DNA of 64,000 nucleotides from an uncultured Chloroflexia bacterium (GCA_963709925.1 CAVPYC010000003.1:126201-190200); one strand, 5' to 3'. Shown: positions 2,062-51,194, numbered from the stretch's first letter. Notes: a model not told the origin generated them from the sequence alone. Numbers and translations are program-made.

Positions 2062-2144
2062 GAAAGGAGGTGCGCAGGAGAAGGCCACCTGCGATACCGC
2101 ACTACCCCAACTGGAACCCGAATTCTCAAGGAGGAGTAGCAAGA

Positions 2145-9349: not shown

Positions 9350-9555
9350 GGCGATCCCTTCGCTGTCTCAGGATGGGCACAACTCCTCCTCCCCGGCGCT
9401 GCCCGTAATCATACAAAATCTATCCTAATTTCCAGAGTACAGGAACCTAACAGTTCTGGGCCTGGCATGGCAGCGGTCCTAGGGGAATCCCACGGATTCG
9501 ACGATAATTGTCCCGAAATGCGCAATCTTCCTGCGTGAGCCGAAGGAGGCGTCAG

Positions 9556-26600: not shown

Positions 26601-29600
26601 AGACGACGGGAGACCAGCCGGCGCCAGGCCACGCGCACGATGGCGTCGATGGCCAACCCGGCCTTGTGGGGCAGCAGGGACACCTCGACCAGCGCCCGTC
26701 CCAGATCGTTGGAGATGATCCGCAGCGAAAAGTGCTTCATTCCCTGGGCGCTGGTGACCCAGGTGAGGGGTTGTGACAGCGGCTGGAACAACACCTGGAG
26801 CAGCACCAGCGCCGCCGCCAGCCAGGCTTGCTCCGGGTCGAGCAGCCAGACCGCGATCAGCAGACCGAGGTTGGCGGCCGGCACCAGGCTGCGGCGCAGA
26901 TTGTCGAAGATCTTCCAACGGTTGACCGACGACAGCGGGTTGCGCTCACGGCGGCCGCCGGGGCGGGGCACCCGCGGCGCCACCCAGTCGGCGATCTGCC
27001 AGTCGCCGCGGATCCAGCGGTGTTCTCGGCGGCCGTAGGTCAGGTAGTCCGGCGGGAACTCGTCGAGCAGTTCGATGTCGCTGACCAGCGCGACCCGGAC
27101 GTGGGCGCCCTCGATCAAGTCGTGACTGAGCAGGTGTTCATCGGGGAAGCGGCCCGAGAGCACCCGGCCGAAAGCGCGCGGATCGTACAGGCCTTTGCCG
27201 TGATACGAGCCTTCGGCGAACAGGTCTTGATAAACGTCGGAGACGGCCTTGGTGTACGGGTCGATCCCGACCGCGTCGGTGAACAGGCGGCTAAAGGGCG
27301 TGGCGCCGGCGGAGGGGAGCGACGGGGTGACGCGCGGCTGGAGGATGGTGTAGCTGCCCGGGAGCACCCGGCCCTGCTCGTCGAAGCGCGGCGCCACCAG
27401 CGGATGGGCCATGGTCTCGATCAAGCGGCGGGCCGTGCCGCTGGGAAGCTGGGTGTCGCTGTCGAGCGTGATCACGAAGCGCACCTCGGTCAGGCGCTCG
27501 GCCTGGCCGACGTGCACCAGCGAATCGGGCTCGGGGTGGGTGCCGTCGATCAGGCGGTTGAGCTCTTCCAGCTTGCCGCGCTTGCGCTCCCAGCCGATGT
27601 AGCGCTGCTCCGATCGGCTCCAACTGCGCTGGCGGTGCAAGAAGAAGAATCGTCCGCCGGGGTGTCGGGCATTGAGCGCCTCGATCCGCTCGACCGCATG
27701 CAGGAACAACGCCTCATCTTCCGGCCGCAGCGCCGCATCGGCGTCGACGTAATCGGTGAACAACCCGAACAGCAGGTTGTCCTCGCGATTGGCCAGGTAG
27801 CGAATCTCCAGCCGCTCGATGGTGGCGTCGATCTGCTGCGGGCTCACCAGGAGTTCCGGAACGACCACCAGGGTGCGGTACTCGTCGGGGATCCCCGTTT
27901 CCGAGAAGTCCAGCTTCGGGAGGGTGCGCGGCGGCAGCAGCCGGGTGACCAGATAGTCGGTGACCTTGAGGGCCAACTGGCTGACCGGGATCAGTCCCAG
28001 CAGGCTGACCAGCAGGGCCAGTCCGGTAGGGAAACCGCGCCAGCCGACGGCCAGGATGGCGGCGATCAGCCCGGCCGAGAGCAGGCCGGCGAATCCGAAG
28101 TACACCGGCGCCGGGTGGGACAGGACGAAGCGCAGGGCACGGTGGCGGAGCCCTTCGCGGCTCCCCAGTTCTTCCACGAAGGCCCGCCGGGCGTCTCCGA
28201 TCAGGTGGGCGCCGATATGACCGAGCGGAGGATCCGGGATCCCCGAGGCGGCCTCGACCGCCGCCTGAGCCACCTCGATCTCGGGGCGGCGAGCGGTGTG
28301 GGCCAGACCTTCGACGGCGCGCCGGTAGCGGTCGCGCGTGTCGAAGTCCATCTGCGGGTAGATTCCCGACGGATCCCGGCGCAGAGTGCGCTCGACGTGG
28401 CTCAGGTTCTCGAACATGCGGCGCCAGTCGAGCAGCGCCAGCTGGCGCAGGCTGGTGAAGGCGTTGCTGACCGAGGTCTGGGCCTGCGACTGGCGGGTGT
28501 GTTCTCGCAGAGTGACCTCGGCCAGGGGCTTGCGGAAGACGCGTTCCAGCCAGCCCTGCACCGGGCCCAGCGCGTCGTCTTCGTCGTACAGGTGGTCGAT
28601 CAACTGCGAGGCGAAGTAGGGCGACGGGGACGGATGGGAGGCGGTGAGATCGGCCAGGACCCCGAACAGGCTGGTCGGATCGCGGCGGCTGAGGGTGAGC
28701 AGACGGTTGGCCCAGTAGTCGGCCATTTGCCGTTGGCGGAGCTGATCGAGAGCGCGGGCGGCCTGGCCGCGGATGTTCTCGACCAGGGCGATGCGCAGCA
28801 TCTGCGGGTAGGCCCACAACTCGCCGATGGTGAGCGGGTGCGCGTGCTGGTAGGCCTCCAGGAAGGCCAGGATGTTTTCGCGCTCGAGCCGGGCGTCGGC
28901 GTGAGCGGTCAGTTCGCTGGCCAGCGCGTAGATGCGCGGCAGCGGCAGCCGCCCGTTGGCCAGCGCCGGCAGCTGGTGGTAGTAGCGGCGCGGCAAGTTG
29001 AGGCGGACGTCGCGGGCGTTGGCTTCGATGATGTACTCGTTGTCCAGGATCCACTCGGAGACGGGCGAGGCGCCCTGGTCGAGTTGGGTCGCGGCCGATA
29101 GATCCTGGCTGACCCGGTGGACCCACAGGCGGGCGCCCTCCAGTCGGCGGAGCAGTTCGGTGTTGCGCCGGGGGCGCGGGTGGAGGTGGTGATCGGCGGC
29201 CAGCCGACGTGCGTGCTCTTCGATCTCCGGCAGAGAGAGGGCCAGCGCCTCCGGGGGCTCGGGCTCCTCGGGTGCGCCTCGTTCGGGGTGGAAGAAGAAC
29301 AGGACCGGCGGTACTTCGCCGCCCTCGCGCAGCAGGGCGGAGGCCTCGGCGGCGGCCTCGACCGGGCACTGCAGCAGGAGCAGCGACTCGTCGGGCACCA
29401 GACGCGGGGCATGTTCGTTGAGCAGGCGGCGCTCGACCCCGAACCGGTTCCGGCGGAACCACAGGCGCGCCACGACCAGGGCCGGCAGCGAGGCCAGCAG
29501 CGCCAGTGTCGGAGGTGTGAGGAAGCGAGGCAGGAACGGCAGCCGCCATCCGAGGGCGATGGCGGCCAGACCGATCATGCCGGACCAGATCACGATCGAG

Positions 29601-29872
29601 AGCGCCGCGCCTACCAGGCGGCGGAGGGAGAAGGGGTCCCAGGTGGTCAGGTTGCCGTCGCCGTCCTTGAGCAGAAGAGCGGCGCGGCGGAACCCGCCGC
29701 GTTCCAGCCCGGCGGCGGCGCTGCGTGCTTCTTGTGGATTGGCGAAGAACCCCAGGACGACGACGTCGGCCATCTGCGTTCCGCGATTGCCATCCTTCTG
29801 GCGGCGAGTCCGACCGGGCCAGTATACCTGCCCCCTCCGTGCAAAGTGACCGGCACCGGTGGGGAGGCCCAC
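20603..29872 (-). CDS. ndvB: Cyclic beta-1,2-glucan synthase (NdvB/ChvB/Cgs-like; N-terminal GT84 membrane domain plus C-terminal GH94 phosphorylase-like domain), about 3000 aa. The 3' third is broken by many frame changes
   Basis: ORF 25094..29872 (1592 aa, intact) is the GT84 region ([12 protein letters not shown]). ORFs 24715..25335, 24582..25109 ([11 protein letters not shown]), 24185..25024 and 21889..24585 (898 aa, GH94) continue it. Fragments 21693..22130, 21293..21757, 20855..21271, 20619..21233 ([23 protein letters not shown]) and 20603..20830 complete the C-terminus. Confidence 0.8.
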
Positions 29873-35858: not shown

Positions 35859-38358
35859 TCAGTACGACCGCGCCAGCCACTCCGCGTTCTCGACGATCCA
35901 GCCCTGCCCTTCCGGGGTAGCCCCGTCGAACGAGCACCACTCGCAGTCGACCTTCCACCAGGTGGTCCCGCCGCTCTCAACCGGGCCGTCGACGAAGGTC
36001 AGGTAGCTTTCCTTCGAGAATGACTCCCAGGATGGGAGCGGTTGTCGAGGGCGAGGCGCGCAGGTTGTAGCGGTCACCGGCCTCCGTGACGAGGTAGGTA
36101 TCCCCCACCCGGAAGAACAGCGCTTCGGTGTGGCTTCCGCCCTCGAATGAGAAGCCCCCGGTCCACGCAGGCCGCTCGGGCGCGGCCCCGGTGTCGAGAC
36201 GCTCGCGCCACTCGTCGTCGGTCAGGCGCTGGCTGCGTGGCTGGAGGAACTCGTAGTACGAGAACACCCCGCCCTGGGCCACCACCAGGCGTCCTTCGAG
36301 CGGGACGATCACGTAGATCCGGTCCACGTAGCCGGTGGCGGCCTCCAGCACCGAGTCTCCGGCGCCGGAAACCGCGGCCACGATCGGCACCTCGGGCATC
36401 TCGCCGATCGGCACGTTGTACGGCGTGACGGTGTAGGTGCACTCGTGGAAACCGAGGCAGCCGGTGATGGCGTAGCGCAGGTCTTCGAGGTCCTGCCCGG
36501 CCAGCTGTGCTGCGGCCGCATCGCCCAGCGCCTCGAGCTGATCGGCCAGCTGCTGCATCAACGACAAATACTGATAGGCCGACGGGTCGGTGAAGTCGTA
36601 GGGTTGGGCCGTCAGGATGGCGGGGTCGAGCCGCCACTCCATCCCTTCACCGATGGCCCGGGCGATATAGGCCATGCGGTAGAAGGCCAGCGGGTTCGGT
36701 TCGACGTAGCTGGGCGCCGGGTCCGAGGTGGGCGGCCCGCCACCGCCGAGTGCCTTCGGGCATCTTCGAGTACAGGACCGTGTCGTGTTTGAGCTCGGCC
36801 CAACTCCCCAGGACGGCGTTGACATCCTTCAGGGCCCAGGCCTGGCTGCGCATGAAGTCGGGGTAGGCCTCGTTCTTTTCCGCTAGGACGGGCAGGAAGG
36901 AGTACAGCCAGGCGCTGTAGGCCCGGCCCAGCCATTGCTCCTCGGGCTGGGCCTCGGCTGCGTCCTGAAGCGCCTGCAGGTTCTCCTCGTACTTCGGGAA
37001 GGCGGTGTCGCCGCGTTCGACCAGCTCCTCCTGCCGCGGCACGAGATCCGAAGGCGGCCGCCACGTCGAGCCCGGTCGGGAACTCTCGACGGGTGCCGTC
37101 GGGGAGCGGATCGACCTTGTCGAAGATCAGGTTCTGGAAGATGTCGGCGTCCATGGTGAAACGCTGGCCCAGGAAGCGCCAGCCCTTCTCGACCTCCAGC
37201 TGAGAACTGAAGTCTAGGAAAGTCGAGTGGATCTGGGGGGCCGGCAGGTCGCCGGTCGAGGATCGGAAGGTCTCCCACAGCGCCGTCGTCGGCCAGATCG
37301 GCGATGGTCGGGTCCGGGCCCGTAGACCGTGTCCATCAGCGCGGCGTACTCCAGCGGACCCAGGTCATCGGTCGGGCCGATCAGGAAGTCGAGCACCCGG
37401 TGGATCTGCCCCACGAGTTGGCCGCCGGCGATCTCGCCCACCCGGGCCTGGCGCAGGGCCAGGGTGAGGATCACGGGCAGGCGCGACGGGACGAAGGCCG
37501 GGTCGTCGGCCTTGCCGAGCGGGAAGTGGACCCGGCCGAGCCAGGTCATGCCGCGGAAGTAGGCTTCGAGTTCGGGATCTCCGGCGTAGTGGCCGACGGG
37601 CTTGTAGGCGCCGTAGTCGTCTTCGAAGTCGGGGAACAGCGCCGAGTCGTCTCGCCCGCCGGCGGCCATGATCTGCGCCAGTTGGGCCGACACCTGATCG
37701 GGCAGCGCCAGGGGCGGTGCGGCTTCCGGGTCGAACAGTTGGATGGCGACTTCGAGGTAGGCCTCGGCCAGCGCCACGTCCTGTTCGATCGAGGTACCGC
37801 TGGCTTCGGCGGCGGTACTGCGCACCTGGTCTTGGGTGGCGGTCAGCATGTCGAGCATCTGGAGGCGGAGCGCCTGCTGCTCGAGGGCCTTGAGCATGTC
37901 GTCGAACAGCAGGTGGAGGGCGTGGAAGGCCTCGTCGGTGGTGCGGAAGAACGGCTGGCCCTGGACGTAGGCGGTGTTGTAGCGGATGTCGTTGAACTGA
38001 GGCTCCTGGCTATGGACCACGACGAAGCCGTTCTGGCTGAGGAAGGCCCGTTGTTCCGCGGTCAGCCCGGCGATGACTTCCGGGTTGGCGACCGTCTCGA
38101 GATCGACCCCGAGGGGGACGGGCGCACCCGCGTAGGGGGCGGGTGACCAGGCGAGCGGCGCGGCGGCTTCGAAGAACGGCTCGGACAAGTTGACAACGAA
38201 GGCGTCCAGCGCCGGGCCGGAGGACGGGCGACGGGTCGGGCGCGGGGTGGCGGCCTGATCCGTCCCGGAAGGGACGGATGGTGCGACCGCCTGGCAGGCG
38301 ATCGAGGCTGCGAGAAGTGCGGTGGCGGCGGAGGCGAGGCGGGCGTGGGGGGGCATGG
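35859..38358 (-). CDS. DUF3160-family lipoprotein (about 830 aa); at least 4 frame changes
   Basis: GGAG RBS then ATG at about 38358 (MPPHARLASAATALLAASIACQA lipobox). DUF3160-like body in ORFs 37214..38545, 36647..37042 (WLYSFLPVLAEKNEAYPDFMRSQAWALKDVNAVLGSWAELKHDTVLY) and 35977..36825. C-terminus in 35859..36077. Confidence 0.6.
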
Positions 38359-38399
38359 GATGGCTCCGTGGACCTCGGACGAGTCTGAGGGTCTCTTCG

Positions 38400-39190
38400 A
38401 GGATAGTCCCAAAGGTGGAGAGGGGCAATCGGCTGATGCGCTGACGCCAGCACCGATCGAAGGGGTTGGTCCCCCAGACCCCCTCGCGGAGCATCCTGAG
38501 GCCCTTCGCTCTGCTCAGGACAGGCTTCGCCGAAGGACGAACCACTCCCCGGTTTGCGAAGCATCCCGCAGCCGAACGGAGGGAATGGGGCGGATGGTCT
38601 TGATCTCAGTTCGAAGAGCAGGGGCGCCGCGGCTTTGGTCTCGCCCAGCCGCGAGGTCGGCGCCTTGGATCCTCCTCTGTGGTTCCTTGGTGGTTGAGGT
38701 GGCCTTCGAACGCTATACGGCGGTATCGCGTCATCCGGGGAAGACTCCGCTCCCCGCCGTTTGCTAGGGAGGGGGGTGGGGGTAAGGGGGCGAGGGGGGA
38801 GGGGAAAGCACTTTCCCTCCCCCCTGCCCCCTGAATGGTAACCAGCCCGCGAACGCCGATCACAGTCTTTGGGAGGCCAGAGGAGGGAAACTCCCCTCCC
38901 TATCGCGGAGCACCCCGGAGCGGAGCGAAGGGGTTGGCCCCCAGACCCCTCGCGAAGCATCCTGAGGCGAAGCCGAAGGACGTTACCCCTCCCCTGTTCG
39001 CGAAGCACCCCGGAGTGTAGCGGAGGGAAGCGGAGGGAAAGCGGCGGGCGTCGGCCACTTGCGTTCGCCACGCGTGGACCGCCGCGCGAGCGCCGTGGCG
39101 AGGCCTCGCGGCAATGGCGAGGCTGGCGTCTCAACACGCCCATGGTGGGAACCCGCCGCTCGCGTGGCCCTGCTTGACCCAGGTTCGCAC
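38400..39190. repeat. Second cluster of the interspersed repeat family (5 copies of TCGCG[AG]AGCA[TC]CC motifs, GGAGGGAAAGCGGCGG, CGCCACGCGTGGACCGCCGCGCGAGCGCC) plus poly-G/C palindromes
   Basis: See 29880-30560. Units at about 38466, 38535, 38890, 38940 and 38985; palindrome GGGAAAGCACTTTCCC at about 38800. Lies in the divergent region between the DUF3160 gene and cassette A. Confidence 0.6.
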
Positions 39191-39193
39191 CGT

Positions 39194-39307
39194 TTTGATG
39201 TCTTGAACCCCTGCGAGTTGTGATGTACCTTAGGTGGTACTCGAGTACTCCCCGTTTTCCGGGCCTGAAAGCCCGGACGTCGCCTCACCAAGGGGGTCAC
39301 AGGGGGC
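39194..39307 (+). promoter_or_regulatory. Conserved about 115-nt leader of surface-protein copy A: TTGAAC box, 14-bp perfect palindrome AGTACTCGAGTACT (39239-39252), stem-loop CCGGGC-ctgaaa-GCCCGG
   Basis: Nearly identical to 46166-46291 upstream of copy B. The stem is conserved while the loop differs (ctgaaa versus ttgaga). Confidence 0.45.
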
Positions 39308-41899
39308 GTGCGGCTCAGGGTTCGAACCCTCAAGCGACTGGTTTCCGGAGGCCTGCTGGCCCTGGGCGCGCTGACCCTGGCCGGGTCGGCGCTGGCCGAC
39401 TACACCGGGCCCGACCGGGTGATCTCGACGTTCTCGTGGGAGCGGCTGGTCTGCGACTATGACGTGGTCTACGATCCGCCCGGTACAGGCTGGTATGGCT
39501 GCAGCCTGACTCTGTACCGACCTCCCGACGGATCGTGCCCGAGTCCCTGGGGGTACTTCACGTCGAGTGTGTGCGGCTGGTCGGTTTCCTCCTTCTGCCC
39601 CGGACCGTACTGCGACCTGAACGAGAGCGAGAGCATCGATTCGTGCAGCTCCGACCAACAGCGGCTGCCGGCAGGTGGAGAGCCAAACCACCCATCCGGA
39701 GGCGACGGTGGCCGGGAGCGTCGACTGCGGCGAACCGGGCTCCGGCGGATGGTGCCGGGGCGGGGCCAGCCTGTCGCTCTCGGGAACCGAGCCGCTTGCG
39801 GGCTACTCGATCATCGGCCTGGAAGGGACGCACAACAGTACGCCCTTCTACTGTTCCGGTTTGTCGTGCAGCCTGCCTCTGGTGGAGGGCGGCAACGACT
39901 TCGACTTCTGGGCGATCTCGTCGTGGGGCGACACGTCCAGGATGGATTCGGCCGGCGGGTCGCTCGATAGCAGCGACCCGTCGTTGGACGGTTCGATCTC
40001 GGGCACCGGTGGCGACAACGGCTGGTTCGTCTCCGAGGTGACCATCAGCGCCTCGGCCAGCGACGCAGTCTCCGGAATTGCCAGCCTGGACGTGAAGGTC
40101 GACGGAGGCGGGTGGGTGTCCTACGGTGGGCCGATCACCCTGGGCGAAGGGAGCCACAACGTTGACCTGCGAGCCGTCGACGTGGCCGGCAACACCGCCA
40201 CCGAGAGCTTGAGCATCGACGTCGACAGTGTGTCTCCGTTTGTAGATCTGGATGCGGTGCCGTCGTTCTGCCCGGGTTGCGGCGAGACCCTGGGCATCCT
40301 GGTCATCGTTCAAGACAGCGGCAGCGGGATCGCCGATTGGGACCTGACCGCCGACGGTGTGGGCGTCGCCGGCGGCGGGAGCACCACCAACCAGACGATC
40401 ACCTGGGACGGTAGCGGCCTCGGGGGCAGGCCTGCACGACATCGACCTGGAGGCCCGCGACGTGGCCGGGAACCAGTCGGGCGCCAGCTTCACCGTCAAC
40501 CTGGTGCTGCCGACCCCCACCCCGACCGAGGTGCCGACCAAGACTCCCGTGCCGACCGACACCCCGGAGCCGCCGTCGCTCTTCGACCTGTTCTCCGCGC
40601 GCGACTCCCTTCCGCTACGCCCCAGGGGCCCTCGGCGGCCACACCCACGCGTCTCCCCACGGCCACGCGCACGCCGCTGACCATCCTGTTCGGCGCTCCA
40701 CCTCCGGCTCCGGCGACCCCGCCGGGAGCGGACCACCCGCCGATCCGTTCGCCGGCGCCTCGCCTCAGGGTTCGATCCTGGCGCTGCCCTCCGGTGTGGT
40801 CTACGGAGGCGCGGCGTTGGCGCTGGGTGCTGCCGCGACGGCCTATGCCGCTCGACCAGGCCCGCAAGCGGAAGGAGGAGGAGGCAAGGCAGCGAGAGGA
40901 GATGCGGCGCCTGAATGCCCAGGCGGAGGCGCGGGAAGAGGCCGAACGTGCCCGCCTGGGGGCGCTGTACGCTGCGGCCGCGGCTGCAGGAGCAGAGGTG
41001 ATGCGGAGGGACGCGGAGCGGAGGGGGCTGGAAGATGGCGCCGGTGCCGCTTCACCGCCGAAGTTGTTTGCCCCCGCGCCAGGAGGCCGACGGGACGACG
41101 ACGAGCCTTCGAAGCCGGGGAGCCTGGAGTGGAAGGAGCGGATGCTGGAGCCGGCCTTGCCGCCGGAACCGCCGCCTTTCGACCTGGCCAGGTGGAAGCA
41201 GGAGGACTACGCGGCAGGGAAGGGGTGGGAGAGGGAGAGGGCCGCACGAATCCACCGTGAAGGGGAAGAGCAGGGTGAGCATCGCGACGGGTTCGCCTTT
41301 GACCTTAGTGGACTCAGGCAGGGCGTGAGTTTGGCGGACAAGATCGCCGACCCTCATTCTAGCTGGGAGGCAAGTCCGAACTTTCGAGGAATTTGGAATT
41401 CTCCGAGTTTTGGGCCGAGAGACGCGAGAGGCGCCGTCGGGATTTGGGAGTACGTGAATTGGGTTGGCATAGCGAGTTGGAGCCTCCTCGTCCAATCTCC
41501 TGTCACGTGTGCAGTCCGAGGCTGAAATCGAAAGGCACCCTTCTGGGTTTGACGACGAACCTTTTCCTGGATGGAAAGGCGTTCGATCGAGGGAGGTCAG
41601 ACCGACACGAATTCGCCGCAGCACTGACGGTGGACACAGGGATAACTGTTGGAACTACGCTTGCCGCTGGCTTCGTCGCAGGGATGGTTACGGGGGCCGT
41701 CTCGGGTGGCTTGGCAGCCAACGTCGCCCTCCCGCTCGTCGGAACCGTGCCCGGAGCCGTGATTGGAGGTATTGTTGGGGGTGTCGTAGGAGCAGCCGTG
41801 GCAATCGGGATCTCATACACGCTTGAGGAAGCGGGAACCCGGCAGCTTCTCGTCGAGAAAGTGGCGGACCTATTCAGATCATGGGAGTTCACGCATTGA
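39308..41899 (+). CDS. Large cell-surface protein, copy A (signal peptide, Cys-rich N-domain, Ig-like repeats, Pro/Thr linker, hydrophobic segment, E/R/K-rich coiled coil, variable C-terminal region ending in a glycine-zipper segment); at least 4 frame changes
   Basis: ORF 39308..39970 (MRLRVRTLKRLVSGGLLALGALTLAGSALA...), 39675..41525 (SIDVDSVSPFVDLDAVPSFCPGCGETLGILVIVQDSGSGIADWDLTADG...PTPTPTEVPTKTPVPTDTPEPP), 40796..41260 (SGVVYGGAALALGAAATAYAA) and 41393..41899 (GFVAGMVTGAVSGGLAANVALPLVGTVPGAVIGGIVGGVVGAAVAIG). Confidence 0.6.
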
Positions 41900-41977
41900 G
41901 AACCGAAGGGACGCCCGGAGCATGCCTCGAAAGAGGCATCCTCGAGCTACGCCTTCGATCGCCTGTGGGAAGCCATC

Positions 41978-42403
41978 TTGGACGAGATCCCACGTCGAAG
42001 AACCTCGTTCTTCCTAACTTCTCCCCTGGCGTGCTTCCTGTTCTGGGTAGTAGGGATCGGGATCGCGAAGAACCCTCCAAGCACACTGATCCCAAGCCTT
42101 GTACCCTCGATCGCAGTTCTCGCCGTAGGTGTCGCTTCATTTCTCGCGCTGAAGCGCTGGAAACGGCGGAGCAGGAAGACAGTCTCTAGTACTCGCCGCG
42201 TGGCACTCACCAACCTCGCCTACTACTCAACGATGCTCCTGGTTCTCTCCTTCTACAGCCTATGGATCGCGATTGGAGCCTCCCCAAGCTCGTCACCTGC
42301 CCCATCGCCGATGGGCATCTTGCTTGCTGGCGTATACGCCCTGTCGATAATGGCATCGTTGCTTTGGGCGCCGAGGTCCACCTCCTCGATCACCGGTAGA
42401 TGA
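41978..42403 (+). CDS. Membrane protein (141 aa, about 4 TM), lower GC; candidate immunity/accessory protein of cassette A
   Basis: TM segments FFLTSPLACFLFWVVGIGIA, LVPSIAVLAVGVASFLAL, LAYYSTMLLVLSFYSLWIAIGA, MGILLAGVYALSIMASLLWA. GC clearly lower than flanking sequence. Confidence 0.5.
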   Translation: MDEIPRRRTSFFLTSPLACFLFWVVGIGIAKNPPSTLIPSLVPSIAVLAVGVASFLALKRWKRRSRKTVSSTRRVALTNLAYYSTMLLVLSFYSLWIAIGASPSSSPAPSPMGILLAGVYALSIMASLLWAPRSTSSITGR

Positions 42404-42791
42404 TCAAGGCGCTGGCCACCGGCAAGGGGCCTGGGTACCATGGATTTTCGTCGCTCAAGGATGTGCTGTTGGGGCCGCCGTCTTCACTGGCGCTTGGCTT
42501 AGACAAGGGTGGGCGAGCTACGGAGCGATGCTTGTGATCGGCCTGTTCGGGTTGTCAGCAGTTCTTCTCGTGACGATCGGGGTTCTTGCCTCCTACCGCT
42601 GGCTCGCCCTCGCATCTAGGCCTAGTCCTACGGATGTGTTTGCCCAACATGGAATCAGAAGCTAGCTTCACCGCAGGTGGCCACGGCAGGCATCTGTGGA
42701 CGGCCTTGAGGACCCCGCTGACCCGATAGGAGAGGGTCATGCGCAGGGCTCAACTCTCGCTTCTCTCCGCAGCTCTGGGGCGCCCTGATCC

Positions 42792-43151
42792 ATGATCGGG
42801 GCAAGGAGCCTGTCGGGCGGGGACCCGGCCTCAGCTTCTACCTCCACCCTCGGCCTGGGTACCGGCCCAATCATGGGCGGCATCCTGGGCGGCATCTTCG
42901 CCGCGTGGCTGGCTCTCGGCGGGACCCGCCGAGTTGCCGGAACTGCGGGAGCACTCTTCGCAGTTCTGGTAGTGCTCGCCGCATGGAATGTGGCCCAACC
43001 GTCCATCTGGATCGTCGATGTTGTCTTGAATGAGATACTCGGCGAGGGCGGTGAGCTGTACTCTGGATTGGCAGTCTTCCTGGTTCCGGCTCATCCCACT
43101 TTTTCGGTTGATTTCAAGTTTCGCCGGGCGGAACTTTTTCGCCAGCCGTAG
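42792..43151 (+). CDS. Small Gly-rich membrane protein, paralog of 50626..51194
   Basis: LGLGTGPIMGGILGGIFAAWLALGGTRRVAGTAGALFAVLVVLAAW...VVLNEILGEGGELYSGLAVFLVP compares with LGLGSGVILGAVLGGILGGWLVIGGRRRVARTAGFLLGVAFIYGAW...VVMHEIFGEGGEQYSALVLFLIA. Confidence 0.5.
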   Translation: MIGARSLSGGDPASASTSTLGLGTGPIMGGILGGIFAAWLALGGTRRVAGTAGALFAVLVVLAAWNVAQPSIWIVDVVLNEILGEGGELYSGLAVFLVPAHPTFSVDFKFRRAELFRQP

Positions 43152-43448
43152 GCTCCCGCGGTCAGGGGCAGGACAGCGGCCATTCGGCGTGAGGGACAGG
43201 GGCTGTGTCTGAGTTCGGGCCGGGGAAGGGGTCAGTGGTGAAGAGAAGGCTTGGACCTCAGGCGGTTGGGGTTTCTTCGGGCCAACTGATCGCCTGTCCG
43301 ATGGTCAAGACAATGTTAGGAGTAGGGACGCCAAGAGTCGTGCGGAAGAGTGAACGGCCGGGAGGTTCAACCCCCGATCGCCGCATGGCCCCTATGGAGG
43401 TCCTTGGCATGGGTGTTGTGACCTAATGGAATCTCTGCGACTCTTCTG

Positions 43449-43820
43449 TTGCTTGCCACACTCATTTCGTCACGGTTTCCTTCGATCATCATGCTTGTGG
43501 TTGCGGGATTGGCACTCTTACTCGGGACACTGTTCACAGTGTGGGCATGGAAGGACCACACCCTCGTGCCGAGACTGGGCGGAACTGTGGTTGTCACCAT
43601 GTTTTTCTTGGCGATGGGCATATGGTTCTGGGGCGCTTTCTTACGGTGTGTGGCTCTGGGGTGTGGTAGCCCTCATTTTGATTCTCTCTATACCGTAGCT
43701 TGGACGTTGCCGGCGATCTCAAGCGCCGCCTCGTCGCTTCTGTGGAGAGAACAGGCCACTCCCCAGACCCGTGTTGGGCGCAGGATCTTCACATGGATCT
43801 GGGCTTCTCGGAGTTCTTAG
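43449..43820 (+). CDS. Hypothetical membrane protein (123 aa), lower GC
   Basis: Three predicted TM helices (MLVVAGLALLLGTLFTVWAW, VVVTMFFLAMGIWFWGAFL). No family recognised. Confidence 0.35.
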   Translation: MLATLISSRFPSIIMLVVAGLALLLGTLFTVWAWKDHTLVPRLGGTVVVTMFFLAMGIWFWGAFLRCVALGCGSPHFDSLYTVAWTLPAISSAASSLLWREQATPQTRVGRRIFTWIWASRSS

Positions 43821-44027
43821 GGCGTGGTGTTGTGGGGGCAAGCTTCGGCACCTCGTTATCGAGAACGGGGAACGTGGCTTTAGCAAGCCTGATTGTTGCT
43901 GTTGGCATGTCGGCAGTAGCCATATTTATGGCACAAGGCTTCTCTCACCAACTCTGGCCCAGGAGGGACCCGGACGAAGGGGTCCGCACTGACCTAGATT
44001 TATCTTCAGGACCTACGCCATGACCTG

Positions 44028-44356
44028 ACGCAGATCCATTGCGATCGCCGGAACGTCTTCCATGGCGGTCCTCCAGACCGACAGCGGCATCGAACCCCGA
44101 AGTAGTCATGGATGAGCTTGTCCCGCATGCCGGCCACTTCGCGCCAGGGGACGACGGCGTATTCTTCCTTGAAAGACGTAGGGATCTTCTTCGAGGCCTC
44201 GCCGATGATCTCGATCGCACGCACGACGGCGTACTGGGTGCGTTCGTCCGTGAGGAACTCCTGCTCGGTCATCCCGGAGGTGAAGGTGGCCACCTTTTCA
44301 GTGGCCTCGAGCATGTCGTCCACGTAGTCCCGGAACTCCGACTTGCCCCTCATACA
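44028..44356 (-). CDS. hepT: HepT-like toxin (DUF86; nucleotidyltransferase-substrate-binding type II TA toxin); C-terminus frame-shifted
   Basis: [20 protein letters not shown]...[47 protein letters not shown]. Two small indels restore ...[24 protein letters not shown]. Confidence 0.65.
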
Positions 44357-44609
44357 GGAACGAGGCTTTCGGAGGATTTGGGCGCCGATGCGGGGGCTTG
44401 AGGGCGTTGCGGAGGACCAGATCGACCGGGGAACCCAGTCGGTCGGATAGCAGGTTCTCCAGTTCGACGAACGGCAAGGAGGCCGGGGGTTCGCTAAACG
44501 AGACGAGCAAGTCGATATCCCCGGCTGGATTCTCCAACTGCGGGTGGGTGATCGAACCGAATACGGCGATTTCCTCGACGCGGTAGCGAGCCCGGAGGTC
44601 CGGTAGCAT
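44298..44609 (-). CDS. mntA: MntA-like minimal nucleotidyltransferase antitoxin
   Basis: AGGAGGAG RBS then ATG at 44609. [23 protein letters not shown] is the NTase GS...D.D motif. The ORF tail over-reads into hepT, so the true stop probably lies at about 44330. Confidence 0.65.
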
Positions 44610-44768
44610 CTCCTCCTCAGGACTGGCAGAACAGTCTCGAGCGTCGGCTTTCTATTCACGATGGGGATTATACAGGTCGCCCCTGGTTCTCGGCCCCACG
44701 CCCTGCGGTCCTGGTGGTCGTTCCGGGGCGCAGCGGTTTCCGTGTGATCAAACGGTCGACGAATGGCT

Positions 44769-45886
44769 CTCAAATGGGCTCCATGCCTTCGTTGAGGATG
44801 GCGAGATAGCGGTCGTAGGCGTACACGCGGTTGCGCCGTCGGCCGGTGAGTTCGCGGGCCACTGCCGGCCGCCAGGATCTCGATGGCACGGGCAGCGGTC
44901 GGGTAGCTGACGCGTGCGCGCGCGGTGAATGTCGTTGATCGTTGCCACCGGCCGTGCCCGCAGCGCGCCATATACTTTCAGCAGACTTGGCGCTGCCGCG
45001 CCCCGTGCGGCGAGCCGTGCCTCGTCGTTCTGGAACAGAGCGAGTAGACGGTGCGCCGTGTCAACCGCGCTGCCAGCGGTTTCGATCACGCCTTCGAGGA
45101 AGAAATCCAGCCAGGCTTCCCAGTCGCCATCGCGGCGGACGGATCGAGCAGGCGGTAGTATTCATCGCGGTGCTGTTTGAAATAGAGGCTCAGATACAGC
45201 AGCGGCTGGCGCAGGACGCCGGCATGATGAAGCATCAGGGCAATCAGCAAGCGGCCGACGCGGCCGTTGCCGTCGAGAAACGGGTGGATGGTCTCGAACT
45301 GGACGGTGCGGCCAGGGCGGCTCGACCAGCGCGGAGAATGGCGAAGTGTCGTCGTGAAGGAACCGCTCCAGGGCGGCCATGCAGCCTCCGACGTTTCAGG
45401 GGGCGGCGGGACGAATTGGGCGTTACCCGGCCGAGGGCCACCGATCCAGTTCTGGGAGCGACGGAACTGGCCGGGGGATATCCCGCTCCCCCGGCCCCGT
45501 TCCAGGAGACGAGCGTGCATCTCCCGAACGAGGCGGTTCGAGAGGGGGGATCCTCGCTGCAGCCGGTCTAGCCCGTGATTGAGCGCGGCGACGTAGTTGG
45601 AAACCTCCACCACGTCGTCCAGCGGTACGCCTGGCGCATCTTCCAGCTCGAATAGCAGCAGCTGGGCGAGCGACGATTGGGTTCCCTCGATCTGGATGTA
45701 GATGCACGGCTTCGTCCGGACGTAGGCGTAGAGGAAGACATCGGGGTCCGGCAGGAGCAGCGTGACGCTGTCGAGCCGTCCCAGCGTGAGCGTGGCGGTG
45801 CTCGACCAGACGCTGTCGTTCGTGGGTGAGCTCCAGCGGCGGATCCGGCGGCAAGGGGCCGGGTAGACAAGCCCGACCCTGTTCAC
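44769..45886 (-). CDS. Fic/DOC-family protein with C-terminal winged HTH; at least 2 frame changes
   Basis: [20 protein letters not shown]...[14 protein letters not shown], the Fic motif [14 protein letters not shown], and the C-terminal ...[16 protein letters not shown]...[24 protein letters not shown] recovered across frames. Confidence 0.65.
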
Positions 45887-46165
45887 CGCCGGCGGACGTC
45901 ACCTTGTACTGGCCCGTCGGGCCTCGATGCACTGCGGGGCCTCCCTGCGCTCTGCGATCGTTGAATAGCATACCACGCTATTTAACCAACAACCCAATTC
46001 GCTTAATAGCGCGGGAAATCGTGGATCGCCTAACATCCCGGGCCGATTGCCGGAGAGCGTGTGGTTGGCGCGGGTTACTGTTCTTTCTGGGGAAGCGCCT
46101 CGGACCGTGCCTGACGTTTCGGGCCCGATCTCATGGTCCGGTCTGGCGTAGCTTTGGCCCGTTTG

Positions 46166-46291
46166 GTTGTCTTGAACCACTGCGAGTTGTGATGTACCTT
46201 AGGTGGTACTCGAGTACTCCCCGTTTTCCCGGGCTTGAGAGCCCGGACGTCGCCTTACCACGGGGGTCACAAGCGTCGTGCGCCTCAGGGT
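46166..46291 (+). promoter_or_regulatory. Conserved leader of surface-protein copy B (same palindrome AGTACTCGAGTACT and stem-loop as 39194-39307)
   Basis: About 95% identical to the copy-A leader. Confidence 0.45.
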
Positions 46292-48677
46292 ATGTCTCTC
46301 CATCGACTGCTCTCCTCAGGCCTGCTGGCCCTGGGCGCCCTGACCCTGGGCCGGGCTGGGCGCTGGCCGACTACACCGGCCCCGACCGGCGATCTCGACC
46401 TTTTCCTGGGAGCGGCTGGTCTGCGACTATGACGTGGTCTACGAGATCCGCCCGGTACAGGCTGGTATGGCTGCAGCCTGACCCTTTACGAGCCTCCCGA
46501 CGGGTCCTGCCCGAGCCCCTGGGGGTACTTCACCTCGAGCGCGTGTGTGGCTGGTCGGTTTCCTCCTTCTGCCCCGGACCGTACTGCGACCTGAACCAGA
46601 GCGAGAGCATCGATTTGTGCAGCTCCGGCCAGCAAGGCTGCAGGCAGGTGGAGAACCAGACCACCCTGCCGGAGGCTACGGTCGACGGGTCGGTGGACTG
46701 CGGCTCACCCGGGGTCGGGCGGGTGGTGCCGTGGCGGGGCCAGCCTGTCGCTCTCGGGGAGCGAGCCGGTCTCGGGCTACTCGATCATCGGCCTGGAAGG
46801 GACCCACAACAGCACACCCTTCTACTGCTCCGGCCCGTCGTGCGGCCTGCCGCTGGTCGAAGGCGGCGATCGAGTTCGACTTCTGGGCTATCTCCTCGTT
46901 CGGGGACACCTCGCGGATGGGCTCGGCCGGAGGATTGCTGGACGGCGGAGATCCGTCGATGAACGGGTCGATCTCCGGCACCGGTGGAGGAACATCCAGC
47001 TGGTCTCGTCGGCGCTGGTTGTCGGCGGCCTGGCCAGCGACCACGGTCTCAGGTCTGGCCAGCCTGGACGTGGTCGATGGCGGCGGTGGAGTTGCTATGG
47101 CGATCTGGCGATCACCCTCGGCGATGGAAGCCACGACGTCGAGCTGCGAGCGATCAAGACATCGTCGCGACACCACCAGCGAAGGCCTGAGCGTCGACAT
47201 TGACAGCGTCGCTCGATCTTCATGGACCTGGAACGCGGTGCCGTCGTTCTGCCCGGGTTGCGGCGAGACCCTGGGTGTCCTGGTCATGGTCCAGGACAGC
47301 GGCAGCGGGATCGCCGACTGGGACCTGACGTCCGACGGGATGGGCATCAGCCGGCGGCGGGAGCGCCACCAGCACAGACGATCACCTGGGGCAGGTGATG
47401 GCCTCGGGGAGGGCATGCACGACATCGACCTCGACGCCCGCGACGTCGGCGGGGAACGAGTTCAGGCCGAAGCTTCACGGTCAGACTTGGTGCTGCCAAC
47501 CCCCACCCCGACTGACAGAGCCGACACGAAGACCTCCTGGTGCCGACGGACACTCCGGCAGCCGCCGTCAAGCTATTCGACCTGTTCTCCAGCGCCAGAC
47601 CCCTGTCCGCCGCTGCCGCCAGCGGCACTTCGGCGGCTCACACCCACGCGTTCCCCGACGGCCACGCGGACGCCGCTGACGATCCTGTTCGGCGCTCCGC
47701 CTCCGGCTCCGGCGAGGCCCGCCCGGAGCGGTCCACCTGGCGACCCACTTCGCCGGCGCCGCCGCCGGGTGCAGCGGTTCGATGCTGGCGATGCCCTCGA
47801 GCGTGGTCTACGGCGGCGCAGCGTTGGCGCTGCGGGCTGCCGCGGCGGCCTATGCGGCTCGACCAGGCGCGCAGGCGGAAGGAGGACAAGTGTGCGACGC
47901 AGAGGGAGGAGATGCGGCAGCGCGAATGCGACGGCGGAGGCGGGAGAAGGCGGAAGCGGAGCGAATTGCCGAGGCGAGCAGCCAGGCCGAGCACGACCTG
48001 TTGATGGGCGAGATCCTCAACCAGGCGACGGGCGGCGATGCGCCTTCGGCCGCCTGGCTGGCCGCGGCGGCGGCAGCGGCGAAGCGGCGCGGCGCAGGCT
48101 GGAGGGGAAGGAAGAGATGCTCGACGCCGGAGCCGATCCGAATTCCGACGCCGCCGCCACCGTGGGCCGGATCGACTTCGACATCGGCCGCTTGGAAGCA
48201 GCAGGACTATGCGGCGGTGGGAGGCATGGGAGAGGGCTGTCGCGCCAGAGCGATACCGCCGCACGGAACATGATTCTCCGACACAGACCACCTCGGACAG
48301 AGATCCCGTGGTGGCAGCAACCCATCCGCTGGCTCAACGATGCACTGGTCGATTTCGTTGTACACCCTCCACCCATACTAAGTCTTTCATTCGCACAGCA
48401 AGCTCCTGGAGCTGCGCTCCAGAGCTACGTCCTCGACGAGTGGATCAGGTATCAACCTAGGGCTGGCAGCTTTCTGGACGAGATCAGTTATCAGAGCGTC
48501 TCCGTGTGCGGAGATATGTCGTATAAGATCACTAGCAATCCAGCAGGCCTCGCAGACGTGAATCTCGCCAATGGTCGTCTCACCTTATATCTCCCCGAGC
48601 TGACGAAGTCGGACATCATTCTACGTTCAGCTTTCGCCCTCAGTTTCGGTCCGTCACGACCGTACCTGTGGACGTGA
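46292..48677 (+). pseudogene. Large cell-surface protein, copy B: about 90% nucleotide identity to copy A over about 2 kb, then a divergent low-GC (about 52%) 3' end. Heavily frame-disrupted
   Basis: MSLHRLLSSGLLALGALTLG... parallels copy A through WKQ[EQ]DYAA (48215 versus 41214). Numerous small indels relative to A. Tail ...PIRWLNDALVDFVVHPP...GDMSYKITSNPAGLADVNLANGRLTLYLPELTKSDIILRSAFALSFGPSRPYLWT*. Confidence 0.55.
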
Positions 48678-49249
48678 CCAGTCTCCCCGTCGATGGCCTG
48701 GGACACTGGTGGTCTTGTCTCGGTCACTGCTGTCGACATGGATATATTGGGAGGAACTCGGCGACGGTCAGTTTGGCAGGGGCAGGGTCTTCCTCTCGTC
48801 CATCTCGCACTATGACGGCGGGGATTTCCATCGATCGGTTCCGATCTTGCCCAGGTCGAATGACGGTCCACCGTTGGCCTCGGTTGTAGTCGTCGTGGCC
48901 GCGCGGTCGCGCCGTCACCGTCGGTTGGAGGCGGCAGTCGTTTGGCCCCTCCGTCCCCACGTTGCAGCAGCTACGGATCATCCTTCGCTTCTCAGGACCG
49001 GACAAAGAGCTTCCGTTGGGCTGTACTCTTGCCGTGCCATTGTGGCTTCCGGGTCCATCGGGAACAACCGTTTCCCGGCCTCCGAGGCCGTGCCCCGGGA
49101 TATGCCATCGCCAGACGGTATTTCCCCCGACCTGCCCGAGTTACCATCATCTCGTCAGCGAGTGCAACCAGAGGACGAATCCTGTACACGGTTCTGGGCC
49201 CTACGTCCGAACCACTAGGCCCCCCCTGTCGATGCCGTAATGATCGAGA

Positions 49250-49900
49250 TCGCCCCGAGGCCGTCGCTACTACGCGTTTGGGACAGACCCTTCCGGCGGG
49301 ACCATTGAAGTCCTCGATCTCGTTACCGGCGAGCGGAGCCTCCTCGTTGAGGGCGAGACACAATTCCCTGGAGCGGCATTGCGGTTCCCTTCGTTCTCAT
49401 GGGACGATCGCCTTGTAGTCTTCGAGGTTTCTGCAGGTAACCGGATTGACGTCGGGCTGTTTGACTTGAGGGCTGGCACGGTTCAACTGCTAGATTCTTG
49501 GGGGAGGGTTCAACAAGTGGCCGAGGGTATCGCCGGATGGAAGCAAGGTACTGGTAGTCTGTGAAAAGGAGGCTCAGGCGGCTTTCTCGCTATGCCTATT
49601 GGATCGTGAGAAACGAACGAGAGGGTACCTGGTCGATGACAGTGTATTCACGAACGGCATGTTCGCCCCGGATGGGAACACAATCGTCTACATTGCCGTG
49701 GAGGGAGCTTCCCGGGGGAGGGGCGCTTGTACCGGGTGGGCGTCGATGGCATTGACCAGCGGCTTCTGGCGTCGGATCTTCACAGCGGAGCTGCGGTTCT
49801 GGCCGTCACGGCTGATAGCGCGGGTTTACGTGCCGATATCCAGATGAACCTGCCTGCAGCTGGGTCTGCACGGTTGGCCTTGATGGCGCGAACCTCAGCG
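49250..49900 (+). pseudogene. Degraded fragment of a PD40/TolB-like beta-propeller gene
   Basis: Frame-hopping peptides GTIEVLDLVTGERSLLVEGE..FSWDDRLVVFEVSAGNRIDV, FAPDGNTIVYIAVEG and LYRVGVDGIDQRLL (PD40 repeat pattern). Low GC. Confidence 0.3.
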
Positions 49901-50625
49901 TCTGATCTACCTCGGCAAACAATGCGTTGCCTCAGCGGGTGGGTCAGGGGAGGCTCAGCCGTAGGACGACGAACCGGCCAGCCTTTCCTTCGCCTCGCTA
50001 TCGACGACGAGTTGGGTCGTGAGCACCAGGTGCTTGAGACTCGTCCTCTGGAAAGAAATGGCCGATGTTGTAGCGGATGCACGGAAGGGGAATTGACTCT
50101 TGTGAAGGGTATGTTCCGACATGGAGAAAACGACAAGGTGCGAAAGCTTCCAGTCAGCGGCTGGGACACTTTTGGCAGCTTGATCGGCAAGGATGAAGCT
50201 AGACTTGTTGCCAGTGAGAGCTACGCGGATGAGCGATCATGTTGGCGCTCGAGGTGTCAGGTATCAGGTTGACACATTCAAGTCGGAGTTCTCTGCCGTC
50301 TCAGTGTTCATCGGCTCAAGGGGTTGCAACCGGGATGGTCGATAGGTAGAGGAGAGTCCGCTGGTGGGCGTTGTCGCGAGTTCCTTGACTACCTGGAGGA
50401 TCGGCGAAAGCCCACGCGCGGAAGTCCGTCGGCAAGCGGAAGAGCTGGCGGGGCTTGGGATCAGAGAAGCCCTGCGAAGCACGCGCAGAGTTGCACCCGG
50501 GTGGAATGACGTCACACACTTGTTTGACGGTTCAGCTCCTGCGAGCGAATGGGCGAGTTTCACTCGGTACTACGACGACCGGAGCGCCCTGAGGGAGGAG
50601 GTGCTCGGAGTTAACCCATCGCCAG

Positions 50626-51194
50626 ATGCTCGCGCACTACACCACTTCTCATTCGGGTCCCTACCAGGCTTCCGTCCATTCCCGGTTGCGTGACATTCGT
50701 CACAATTCTCTAGGGTTCCCAGGGCCGAGAAGAAACCACTGGGGGAGCGGGGTGACTAAACCTCTGCGTCGTGCTGTGATACTCGTAGCGGCCTCCGCAG
50801 CTACAGGTTGGATTGTTGTTGCGATTGCGAGAGGACTTGCTGGGCACGACCCTGCTGCGAAGCTCGCCTCCGCCCTTGGTCTCGGCTCCGGGGTGATCCT
50901 GGGAGCCGTGCTGGGAGGCATTCTTGGAGGTTGGCTCGTCATCGGTGGAAGAAGGCGGGTCGCAAGGACGGCTGGCTTCCTTCTGGGCGTCGCCTTCATC
51001 TACGGCGCCTGGCTGGGGACCAGGTCCAACCTTGGGTTCTAGATGTGGTGATGCACGAGATCTTCGGAGAGGGGGGTGAGCAGTACTCCGCCCTGGTGCT
51101 GTTCTTGATCGCCATCCCGCTGTTCCGAACCGTCGCCGGGGTCGGCACAGGCCTTGTGGGGAGCCTGCTCCTGGCCCGGAGAACTCTGACCTAG
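50626..51194 (+). CDS. Small Gly-rich membrane protein (paralog of 42792..43151) with one frame change
   Basis: ORFs 50626..51042 and 50808..51194 in two frames jointly match the copy-A-side paralog. Confidence 0.45.

Follow-up and report, generated by a model that had tools for sequence, protein, structure and literature searches.

The 64,000-nucleotide stretch of an uncultured Chloroflexia bacterium analysed here (GCA_963709925.1, CAVPYC010000003.1:126201-190200; in the following "the window", with positions counted from its first letter) carries two tandem genes between positions 39194 and 51194, which share their N-terminal part and differ in their C-terminal ends. Each is followed by genes for predicted membrane proteins or lipoproteins (Table 1). 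An earlier reading of this sequence (the original prediction) had proposed a polymorphic toxin/immunity-like architecture for the region. The diversity of the C-terminal tails, their co-variation with downstream genes, the sharing of tails between carriers and the swaps between haplotypes described below all support this proposal. We consider it likely that two polymorphic toxin-immunity cassettes lie in tandem here and that they belong to a family of Chloroflexota (Anaerolineales-like) which is absent from the libraries and papers searched. Two contigs from one metagenome (ENA ERZ25039603 contig_31186 and contig_31189), referred to as L001 and L053, serve as references throughout.

The two copies share their N-terminal part and 5' leader

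Repeat search, global alignment and self-blastn identified positions 39190-40938 and 46159-47949 as direct repeats, the identity of which is 82.5% with gaps counted and about 87% with gaps excluded. The segments had originally been placed at essentially these coordinates, but with an identity of about 90%, which is slightly too high. A repeat of 1.75 kb at this level is far beyond chance. A fainter similarity between copy A and copy B runs on to about 41240 and 48262, respectively, where the copies diverge, in agreement with the earlier estimate that homology decays and is lost by about 41290/48290. In the shared part, the guanine-cytosine (GC) content amounts to 0.67-0.75; over 41200-44400 and 48200-51000 it is lower, at 0.55-0.62, as had been noted for the C-terminal ends.

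The shared segment starts 5' of the start codon and takes in a promoter-like site and a leader (39203-39307 and 46172-46276), so that the conserved leader noted before belongs to both copies. In cassette A, sigma-70-like elements (-35 TTGAAC, 39203-39208; -10 TACCTT, 39226-39231) are followed by the hairpin CCGGGCCTGAAAGCCCGG at 39259-39276. A block of about 48 nt within the leader is 100% identical between copy A and copy B, and similar -35/-10 pairs occur upstream of family genes at other loci. The conserved leaders, for which an Rfam scan returned no family, may represent a lineage-specific regulatory element.

Across the family, the 5' leaders are conserved more strongly than the coding sequence. 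A second leader type with the hairpin CCGCAGATCGGGGGAGYCTGCGG is common to L011-L013, L015 and L018 and likewise has no Rfam family. Just 5' of cassette A, four copies of a REP-like direct repeat of about 43 nt occupy 38541-39027 (region 38455-39029), together with a strong palindromic hairpin at 38784-38833, to which Rfam gave only generic, sub-threshold miRNA-hairpin matches.

The carriers form a family with one common domain order

To identify relatives, we used the frame-corrected N-terminal 423 amino acids (aa) as query. This search yielded 63 relatives, the close ones all originating from metagenome-assembled genomes (MAGs) of Chloroflexota/Anaerolineales and from metagenomes. Several copies of the family occur per genome, many of them at contig ends. 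Complete members comprise 650-1150 aa and exhibit one common domain order in the family alignment. A Sec-type signal peptide ending ALA-DY is followed by a Cys-rich region with invariant cysteines and by immunoglobulin (Ig)-like domains, which match Big_13/Big_7 in Pfam and the OmpL47-type barrel (barrel_OmpL47) in NCBIfam. Next come a Pro/Thr linker, which contains the conserved PxRTPxxVxFG motif, and a hydrophobic helix with the consensus VLWGAAALALIGAATAYAL; DQxRKRKEEE adjoins this helix directly and leads into a K/R/E coiled coil. The AlphaFold2 (AF2) model of the carrier displays an Ig stalk plus a helix. Its ectodomain is all-beta (pLDDT >90), and the best matches in the PDB are the stalks of the BIg adhesins SiiE, RTX adhesins and GhpA (Foldseek E down to 2e-9). 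Homologues, Pfam/NCBIfam and the AF2 model therefore agree with the order predicted for the window, i.e. signal peptide, Cys-rich domain, Ig-like repeats, PT linker, hydrophobic segment and coiled coil.

Two sequence motifs stand out in the carriers. PxRTPxxVxFG occurs about 30-60 residues before the transmembrane (TM) helix (window, about 40640-40700), and KExxLEPxxP...DLAxWKQxDYAAGxxWE is located just before many tails, including those of both window copies (window, about 41150-41240). In copy B, the shared part is followed by a WKQQDY junction and a WWQQ motif before its own tail begins. PxRTPxxVxFG and WKQxDYAAGxxWE could be processing or recombination landmarks. The carrier family has no entry in the Pfam, NCBIfam or PHROGs libraries searched, and in full-text literature searches neither a connection of polymorphic toxins to Anaerolineae nor an account of such a family from Chloroflexota turned up. 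As suspected from the window alone, the family may thus be undescribed.

Table 1 Features of the two cassettes and of other genes in the window
Feature	Position	Strand	Remarks
Cassette A promoter-like site and 5' leader	39203..39307	+	Conserved with copy B
Toxin-carrier gene A (putative)	39308..41899	+	About 860 codons after frame correction
Gene A signal peptide	39308-39397	+	Followed by Cys-rich cap
Gene A Ig-like domains, three	to ~40530	+	Followed by PT linker with PxRTPxxVxFG motif
Gene A TM helix	~40770-40850	+	Followed by K/R/E coiled coil
Gene A junction motif DLARWKQEDYAAGKGWE	~41180-41240	+	Before CT-A
CT-A glycine-zipper module	41412-41899	+	Reconstructed from P0064/L053 and A2 alignment
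ImmA, candidate immunity gene	41896..42665	+	About 254 aa, polytopic membrane protein with about 6 TM segments
Small Gly-rich 4-TM protein, copy A	42739..43192	+	146 aa in L053
Polytopic membrane protein	43301..44023	+	About 238 aa, frameshifted in window
Cassette B promoter-like site and 5' leader	46172..46277	+	Hairpin 46229-46246
Toxin-carrier gene B (putative)	46278..48994	+	N-terminal architecture as gene A
Copy B tail	~48300-48994	+	About 240 aa, ends in hydrophobic segment; stop from L053 7798-9033
ImmB, candidate immunity gene	49005..50300	+	Lipoprotein, PD40-type beta-propeller; fragmented, 3' end uncertain
Small Gly-rich 4-TM protein, copy B	50767..51194	+	Frameshifted near 51010; start approximate
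HepT-like/MNT toxin-antitoxin pair and Fic/Fic_N gene (spacer)	44006..45886	-	Pfam; conserved in L001 and L053
GH94 gene (unrelated, frame-broken)	20619-24585	-	Pfam
DUF3160 gene (unrelated, frame-broken)	35977-38545	-	Pfam

C-terminal tails are polymorphic and differ between haplotypes

When the last 160 aa of the 32 proteins sharing the N-terminal region were clustered, they fell into 21 C-terminal classes, and the C-termini of complete open reading frames (ORFs) differed strongly after the coiled coil. The full-length homologues therefore do not share one C-terminus, and the further pairings of the N-terminal region with other tails that the original prediction suggested looking for in other genomes do exist. 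Several tails could be related to known domains. That of L019 consists of two LysM domains, SH3_3 and a weak M23 match, those of L021 and L031 combine SH3_3 with an unassigned Cys-containing domain that looks Cys-peptidase-like, and that of L012 is a GH19-type endolysin-like domain (PDB 4ok7, E=5e-7). The remaining tails could not be assigned. A second hydrophobic segment is present in the tails of L009, L012 and L019. Two motif-based guesses found no support, namely a SLT lytic transglycosylase in the L009 tail (PDB sequence search) and an HExxH peptidase in L008/L025/L026 (Pfam or PDB).

Copy A ends, as had been proposed, in a membrane-active-looking glycine-zipper module, which we term CT-A and which recurs as a C-terminal module in other proteins. 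With the ORF 41393-41899 as query, a full HMMER scan (E ≤ 1e-3) returned 47 cluster representatives; these proteins comprise 100-900 aa, and the matched part was in every case their extreme C-terminus. A metagenome scan with the CT-A alignment as query yielded 21 loci. The module of about 200 aa is characterised by an RxEYAA(A/S)LTxDTG motif, invariant glycines in zipper spacing (G127, G131, G135, G139, G151, G155 and G163 in the A2 alignment of 10 CT-A modules) and a terminal LYRSWTG. It thereby displays the repeated C-terminal GxxxG/AxxxG pattern of glycine zippers of the TelE, EsxX, Tse4 and Ssp6 type. In Pfam, a match to Gly-zipper_Omp stayed below threshold (E=0.033). In the window, CT-A is intact save for a frameshift at about 41522. 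CT-A is found on three complete proteins of the carrier family described above (P0067, P0075 and P0077) and also on an unrelated carrier with a signal peptide and a papain-like Peptidase_C39_2/C70 domain (P0079, L043 at 3-1802 and L047 at 1332-3281).

Comparison with L001 and L053 revealed exchanges of whole blocks. Over 39044-41163, the identity between the window and L001 is 95.6%; the two are then unrelated until 42755, similar again over 44024-47942 (comprising the HepT/MNT/Fic genes and the copy-B N-terminus) and then unrelated until 51351. L053 has the cassettes of the window and L001 has others, so that the two contigs from one metagenome sample differ at the same two blocks of tail plus partner. 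Cassette haplotypes thus coexist in one community.

Tails are followed by partner genes of their own

CT-A is regularly followed by one kind of gene. In the 19 metagenome loci L032-L050, the next gene after CT-A encodes a protein of 230-250 aa with 4-6 TM segments and the motifs LWRxxLRDxxxRRxSFF... and ...WAPRSLPRS..., and in L047 the C39-type carrier with CT-A is followed by the same polytopic partner gene. The corresponding gene of the window, the candidate immunity gene immA, is split by a frameshift near 42382. A 4-TM protein of 141 aa had previously been predicted at 41978-42403; this ORF exists, but it is only the N-terminal part of a protein of about 254 aa with 6 TM segments, spanning 41896-42665, which continues in another frame at 42384-42665 (tblastx). 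Protein homologue searches with the 141-aa ORF were empty, and its homology emerged only by tblastx against the CT-A-selected loci, which gave matches in two frames to genes 3' of the tail in at least 15 metagenome loci. The ImmA cluster comprises 20 ORFs from 19 sources. L053 carries an intact homologue of 254 aa (1973-2737), which overlaps the stop codon of the putative toxin gene. Neither CT-A nor the ImmA family matched a significant family in Pfam, NCBIfam or PHROGs scans. A glycine-zipper tail with a polytopic partner next to it forms a pattern that one would expect of a toxin which acts on membranes and is countered by an immunity protein in the membrane. Judged by this pattern, CT-A is most likely a membrane-depolarising or pore-forming toxin, and ImmA most likely neutralises it.

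The tail of copy B is, as originally described, unrelated to CT-A. Its apparent stop at 48677 is an artefact, the true stop being located near 48994; in L053, the tail runs from EIPWWQQPIRWLND... to ...QQLRIILGF. No Pfam or PDB match was obtained for this tail. It is followed by immB, a candidate immunity gene for a lipoprotein. In L053, this protein has the lipobox IVASGC, and the translation of 9044-9976 scores 22.2 bits against Pfam PD40 (gathering cut-off 20.9); the PD40 signal of the window fragments is weak and stays below threshold. Lipoproteins of the PD40 type occupy the analogous position 3' of the tails in L012, L013 and L022.

Correspondingly, other tails have partners of their own. 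The GH19-like tails of L012/L013 are followed by homologous PD40 lipoproteins, and the lipoproteins behind the SH3 plus Cys-peptidase-like tails of L021/L031, which measure about 430-445 aa, are homologous to each other as well. A GCxLPCWWGIxPG motif marks lipoproteins in L008, L026 and L021, with the L008/L026 pair sharing its partner lipoprotein. A tail ending ...FFDTSDEVW...-like is shared by L018, copy 2 of L001 and the orphans L003 and L040-L042, and is followed by small cytoplasmic proteins; some partners are thus cytoplasmic and have no signal peptide (L018, L001 copy 2). In L003 (4310-6401) and L040-L042, carrier-less tail fragments, all with a partner gene directly behind them, lie 3' of the main toxin gene. 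L018 (10639-15250) contains two paralogous polytopic membrane-protein genes with a tail remnant in between, and behind either of these two genes comes one that encodes a TM protein of about 50 aa. The downstream genes are therefore conserved partners, although of the tail (CT-A in L032-L050, GH19-like and SH3 tails) and not of the carrier.

Further genes lie between and behind the cassettes. The two small Gly-rich proteins are paralogous after frame correction (54% identity, 104 aa, E=2e-36), and the ORF 50626-51042 may provide that of copy B with an N-terminal extension. They had been proposed to close each cassette; the paralogy is evident, but, apart from a weak match in L018, the protein is restricted to this lineage among the loci compared and is therefore a lineage-specific extra rather than a general closing element. 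It has no significant Pfam, NCBIfam or PHROGs match and may be an extra or orphan immunity protein. The polytopic membrane protein of about 238 aa at 43301-44023 has no significant Pfam, NCBIfam or PHROGs family; its homologue in L001 directly follows a different glycine-zipper tail, and homologues are present in L018, too. Here, its gene is probably an orphan immunity gene. The HepT/MNT and Fic genes in the spacer are not part of the toxin system proper.

The frameshifts are most likely assembly errors

Three-frame translation and a GC3 frame plot revealed that neither copy A nor copy B is one ORF. In copy A, six frame changes occur (near 39661, 40425, 40603, 40716, 40850 and 41522). Within 1.6 kb (window 46277-47910), copy B differs from copy A by about 58 indel runs with lengths not divisible by three, most of them extra bases, which is several-fold denser than in copy A or in neighbouring genes. 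Such dense indels probably extend to about 51200. We corrected the frames by homologue-guided reading, as the frames proposed by a codon-usage Viterbi approach were wrong in DNA of such high GC content. Single-base indel errors seem to affect the assembly as a whole, so that the genes called in this record (e.g. P0029, P0036 and P0041) are partly out of frame.

Most likely, the frameshifts are long-read assembly errors and not biology, because several features of the sequences converge on this reading. Unrelated genes of the window are split alike: the GH94 catalytic domain is distributed over three ORFs (profile positions 1-77, 150-231 and 302-347), and so is the DUF3160 gene. Substitutions are biased towards third codon positions, both between copy A and its L001 counterpart (10/4/38 for the three positions) and between copies A and B (44/26/99). 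Homologues from short-read MAGs read in a single frame. Moreover, the indel positions differ among the window, L001, which is itself frameshifted, and L053. The latter is colinear with the window over 39928-49919, and in it these genes appear as long ORFs. Single-base gaps dominate the differences: for the 238-aa gene, intact in L053, the window and L053 differ by 24 gap columns and 9 mismatches, and the ratio of indels to substitutions between copies A and B is 58:208. Finally, L001 and L053 bear Flye-style contig names, which are typical of long-read assemblies. The excess of indels in copy B could be due to low coverage, a minority haplotype or some real decay.

We rejected programmed frameshifting and phase variation as explanations, since the indels differ in position among the window, L001 and L053 and also affect unrelated genes. 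Beside the GH94 gene, an ORF of 1592 aa (25094-29872; region 21889-29872, minus strand) has no Pfam match; together with the GH94 gene, it may represent one large gene of the glucan synthase/phosphorylase type that frame errors have split.

Discussion

Polymorphic toxins have been described by Zhang, Aravind et al. (2012; PMC3482391) with the trafficking types T5SS/FHA, T6SS/PAAR, T7SS WXG/LXG, TcdB/TcaC, PVC, PrsW, MuF, MafBN and APD1. Several of the features by which that study recognises such systems recur here. A conserved N-terminus is combined with many unrelated C-termini, both in the family and between A and B within the window; the downstream gene co-varies with the C-terminal domain, as an association; CT-A occurs on unrelated carriers; and blocks of tail and putative immunity gene are replaced between window/L053 and L001, with orphan cassettes at other loci (within the window itself, the only orphans are the possible immunity genes at 42739-44023). 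As for the putative toxin domain itself, neither tail of the window has a match in Pfam, NCBIfam or the PDB; CT-A shows the glycine-zipper pattern of known membrane toxins, and relatives carry lytic-enzyme domains. Architecture, tail polymorphism, co-variation of tail and partner, tail sharing, haplotype swaps and atypical GC content are thus all observed. The family closely parallels the Sec-dependent, 'T2SS'-labelled class of PMC3482391 in its conserved N-terminal trafficking region, variable C-termini and co-varying downstream gene, and it shares with polymorphic toxins in general the occurrence of tails on different carriers, orphan cassettes, several paralogues per genome and atypical GC. 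It differs from the types listed there by the combination of signal peptide, Cys-rich cap, Ig-like stalk, internal stop-transfer TM helix and coiled coil, and this carrier has neither RHS, FilH or ALF repeats nor HINT or another releasing peptidase.

The locus had originally been likened to contact-dependent inhibition (CDI), Rhs and MafB systems. The architecture with swapped tails holds, whereas membership in any of these groups does not, as their defining domains are absent. The resemblance to CDI lies in an elongated, surface-displayed N-terminus, a C-terminal toxin, a junction motif before the variable tail (VENN in CDI, WKQxDYAAGxxWE in the present family), a directly downstream immunity gene and orphan modules. 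Similar to what is predicted for CT-A, CdiA-CT(EC93) is an ionophore of the membrane, and its immunity protein is a small membrane protein. In the present family, however, the Ig-like domains were the only Pfam matches (no two-partner secretion (TPS) domain, FHA repeats or VENN were detected), the flanks contain no conserved CdiB or other transporter, and the carrier is predicted to be anchored by its own TM helix, probably without an outer membrane context. Rhs/WapA proteins of monoderms are similar in being large, Sec-exported, surface-associated proteins with polymorphic tails and downstream immunity genes. The present carriers, unlike these, are much smaller (650-1150 aa), have no YD/RHS shell and no PxxxxDPxGL, and replace wall-binding repeats by a membrane anchor; no RHS match was found in Pfam or NCBIfam, and the AF2 model is an Ig stalk with a helix. 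OmpL47-type/BIg adhesins such as SiiE, RTX adhesins and GhpA have a similar repeat fold, but the likeness is restricted to the stalk, and these giant adhesins carry no toxin tail and have no immunity partner.

For CT-A, the closest parallels in pattern are TelE-TipE and EsxX-ExiAB/ExiCD. In TelE and EsxX, a C-terminal glycine-zipper is the toxic part, being membrane-damaging, depolarising or pore-forming; EsxX is countered from outside by the polytopic ExiCD, which is also found as orphan immunity genes, and TipE and ExiAB are soluble partners (PMC10434224, PMC12744356). Besides the glycine-zipper tail, a parallel can be drawn between ExiCD on the one hand and ImmA with the additional genes for membrane proteins at 42739-44023 on the other. 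In contrast to TelE and EsxX, the window contains no LXG domain (no LXG match in Pfam) or genes for type VII secretion (T7SS), and no soluble partner was seen. The Sec signal peptide ending ALA-DY and the beta domains likewise do not fit an LXG/T7SS protein.

Toxicity, protection, topology and delivery to neighbours are suggested by this architecture, and a possible mode of action can be drawn up as follows. The carrier would be exported via Sec and anchored by a single membrane pass, with the Cys-rich cap and the Ig-like stalk outside the cell. The hydrophobic helix followed by RKRK would favour a type I topology, leaving the coiled coil and the tail on the cytoplasmic side, and the exchangeable C-terminal effector would sit behind the junction motif. 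CT-A would insert into membranes and dissipate the membrane potential, and ImmA would block it in the membrane. The effector of copy B would be the unique domain of about 240 aa, paired with the PD40 beta-propeller lipoprotein, and lytic tails with lipoprotein partners may act on the wall of a neighbour, the partner shielding sister cells from outside. Blocks of tail and partner would be swapped between strains and carriers by recombination at or near the junction. The tail may leave the cell upon release by processing, by a second TM segment flipping some tails outward or via a contact-triggered route. As a possible but doubtful extension, this could be a new trafficking mode of filamentous monoderm Chloroflexota, i.e. 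a self-anchored, CdiA-like 'stick' that operates without T5, T6 or T7 machinery. Cap and stalk would then form the recognition device, the toxin would be parked in the cytoplasm or the membrane until contact-triggered transfer to a neighbour, and PxRTPxxVxFG and WKQxDYAAGxxWE would be processing and recombination landmarks.

Several points weigh against a toxin-immunity system. With the exception of PD40 (via L053), tails and partners of the window have no significant family in Pfam, NCBIfam, PHROGs or the PDB, so that the labels 'toxin' and 'immunity' derive from architecture. The stop-transfer TM helix before the tail should keep the effector in the cytoplasm of the producer, and the flanks of all loci contain no conserved export, secretion, delivery or accessory gene. 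Several tails of relatives are cell-wall hydrolases, which could serve the cell's own wall remodelling. The copy B tail has no relatives beyond the near-identical L053, which is a weak negative since the search missed the source's own ORF P0036. In addition, the indel density of copy B is far above that of the rest of the window, and real decay in this strain is possible.

These points lead to other readings of the locus. The carriers may be housekeeping surface enzymes, the Ig-like stalk anchoring envelope-acting modules which the downstream proteins regulate or inhibit for the cell's own wall growth and the septation of filaments. The LysM/SH3/M23 and GH19-like lytic domains of relatives, the adhesin-like ectodomain and a second hydrophobic segment, which would place several tails outside the cell, are compatible with this role, as is the fact that neither a classical toxin domain nor secretion machinery nearby was detected. 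It would not be expected, however, that near-identical strains differ exactly at the block of tail and partner, that orphan tail fragments occur together with partner genes, or that a tail-partner pair is shared with an unrelated carrier and the cassettes are low in GC; some partners are, moreover, cytoplasmic without a signal peptide (L018, L001 copy 2). We thus regard a housekeeping function as unlikely. Even less probable is that one or both copies, above all B, are pseudogenes decaying after a tandem duplication, with real frameshifts. The frame changes in A, the denser indel runs in B and the frameshifts in the related L001 would suit decay, but unrelated genes of the window are split in the same manner, substitutions are strongly biased towards third positions, and L053 and the short-read homologues carry the genes as long or intact ORFs, in L053 with an intact copy B tail and lipoprotein. 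The ratios of indels to substitutions (between A and B and, for one gene, to L053) are far too high for natural decay, and the Flye-style names of L001 and L053 point to long-read assembly. The possibility raised initially that copy B is simply a decayed duplicate is therefore not borne out.

An origin from prophage or tailocin genes for receptor-binding proteins and lysins, with an Ig-like fibre and exchangeable lytic tips, appears highly improbable. Ig-like stalks plus endolysin-like tails would be in line with it, and a Gly-rich stretch has PHROG matches to endolysin or tail-lysin families at E of about 1e-3. These matches, however, reflect a low-complexity Gly-zipper below significance, the small proteins have no holin match, phage structural or replication genes are absent from the flanks, and Sec signal peptides with an internal TM anchor are at odds with a phage origin. 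Polymorphic toxin-immunity cassettes thus remain the most plausible account of the locus.

Polymorphic toxins are a main means of bacterial kin discrimination and competition, and to our knowledge almost all that is known of them comes from Proteobacteria, Bacillota, Actinomycetota and Bacteroidota. The present locus would extend them to abundant, mostly uncultured Chloroflexota (Anaerolineales-like; from sludge and sediments), with a new carrier family, a glycine-zipper tail of about 200 aa and a 6-TM partner family. The internal anchor before the predicted toxin raises the question of how a tail retained in the cytoplasm would reach its target. In long-read assemblies ridden with frameshifts, annotation based on genes can miss loci of this kind. 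The presence in one metagenome of two haplotypes with differences only in their cassettes suggests ongoing strain-level conflict. Taken together, a known competition strategy would here be built on a carrier that is undescribed in the libraries and papers searched.

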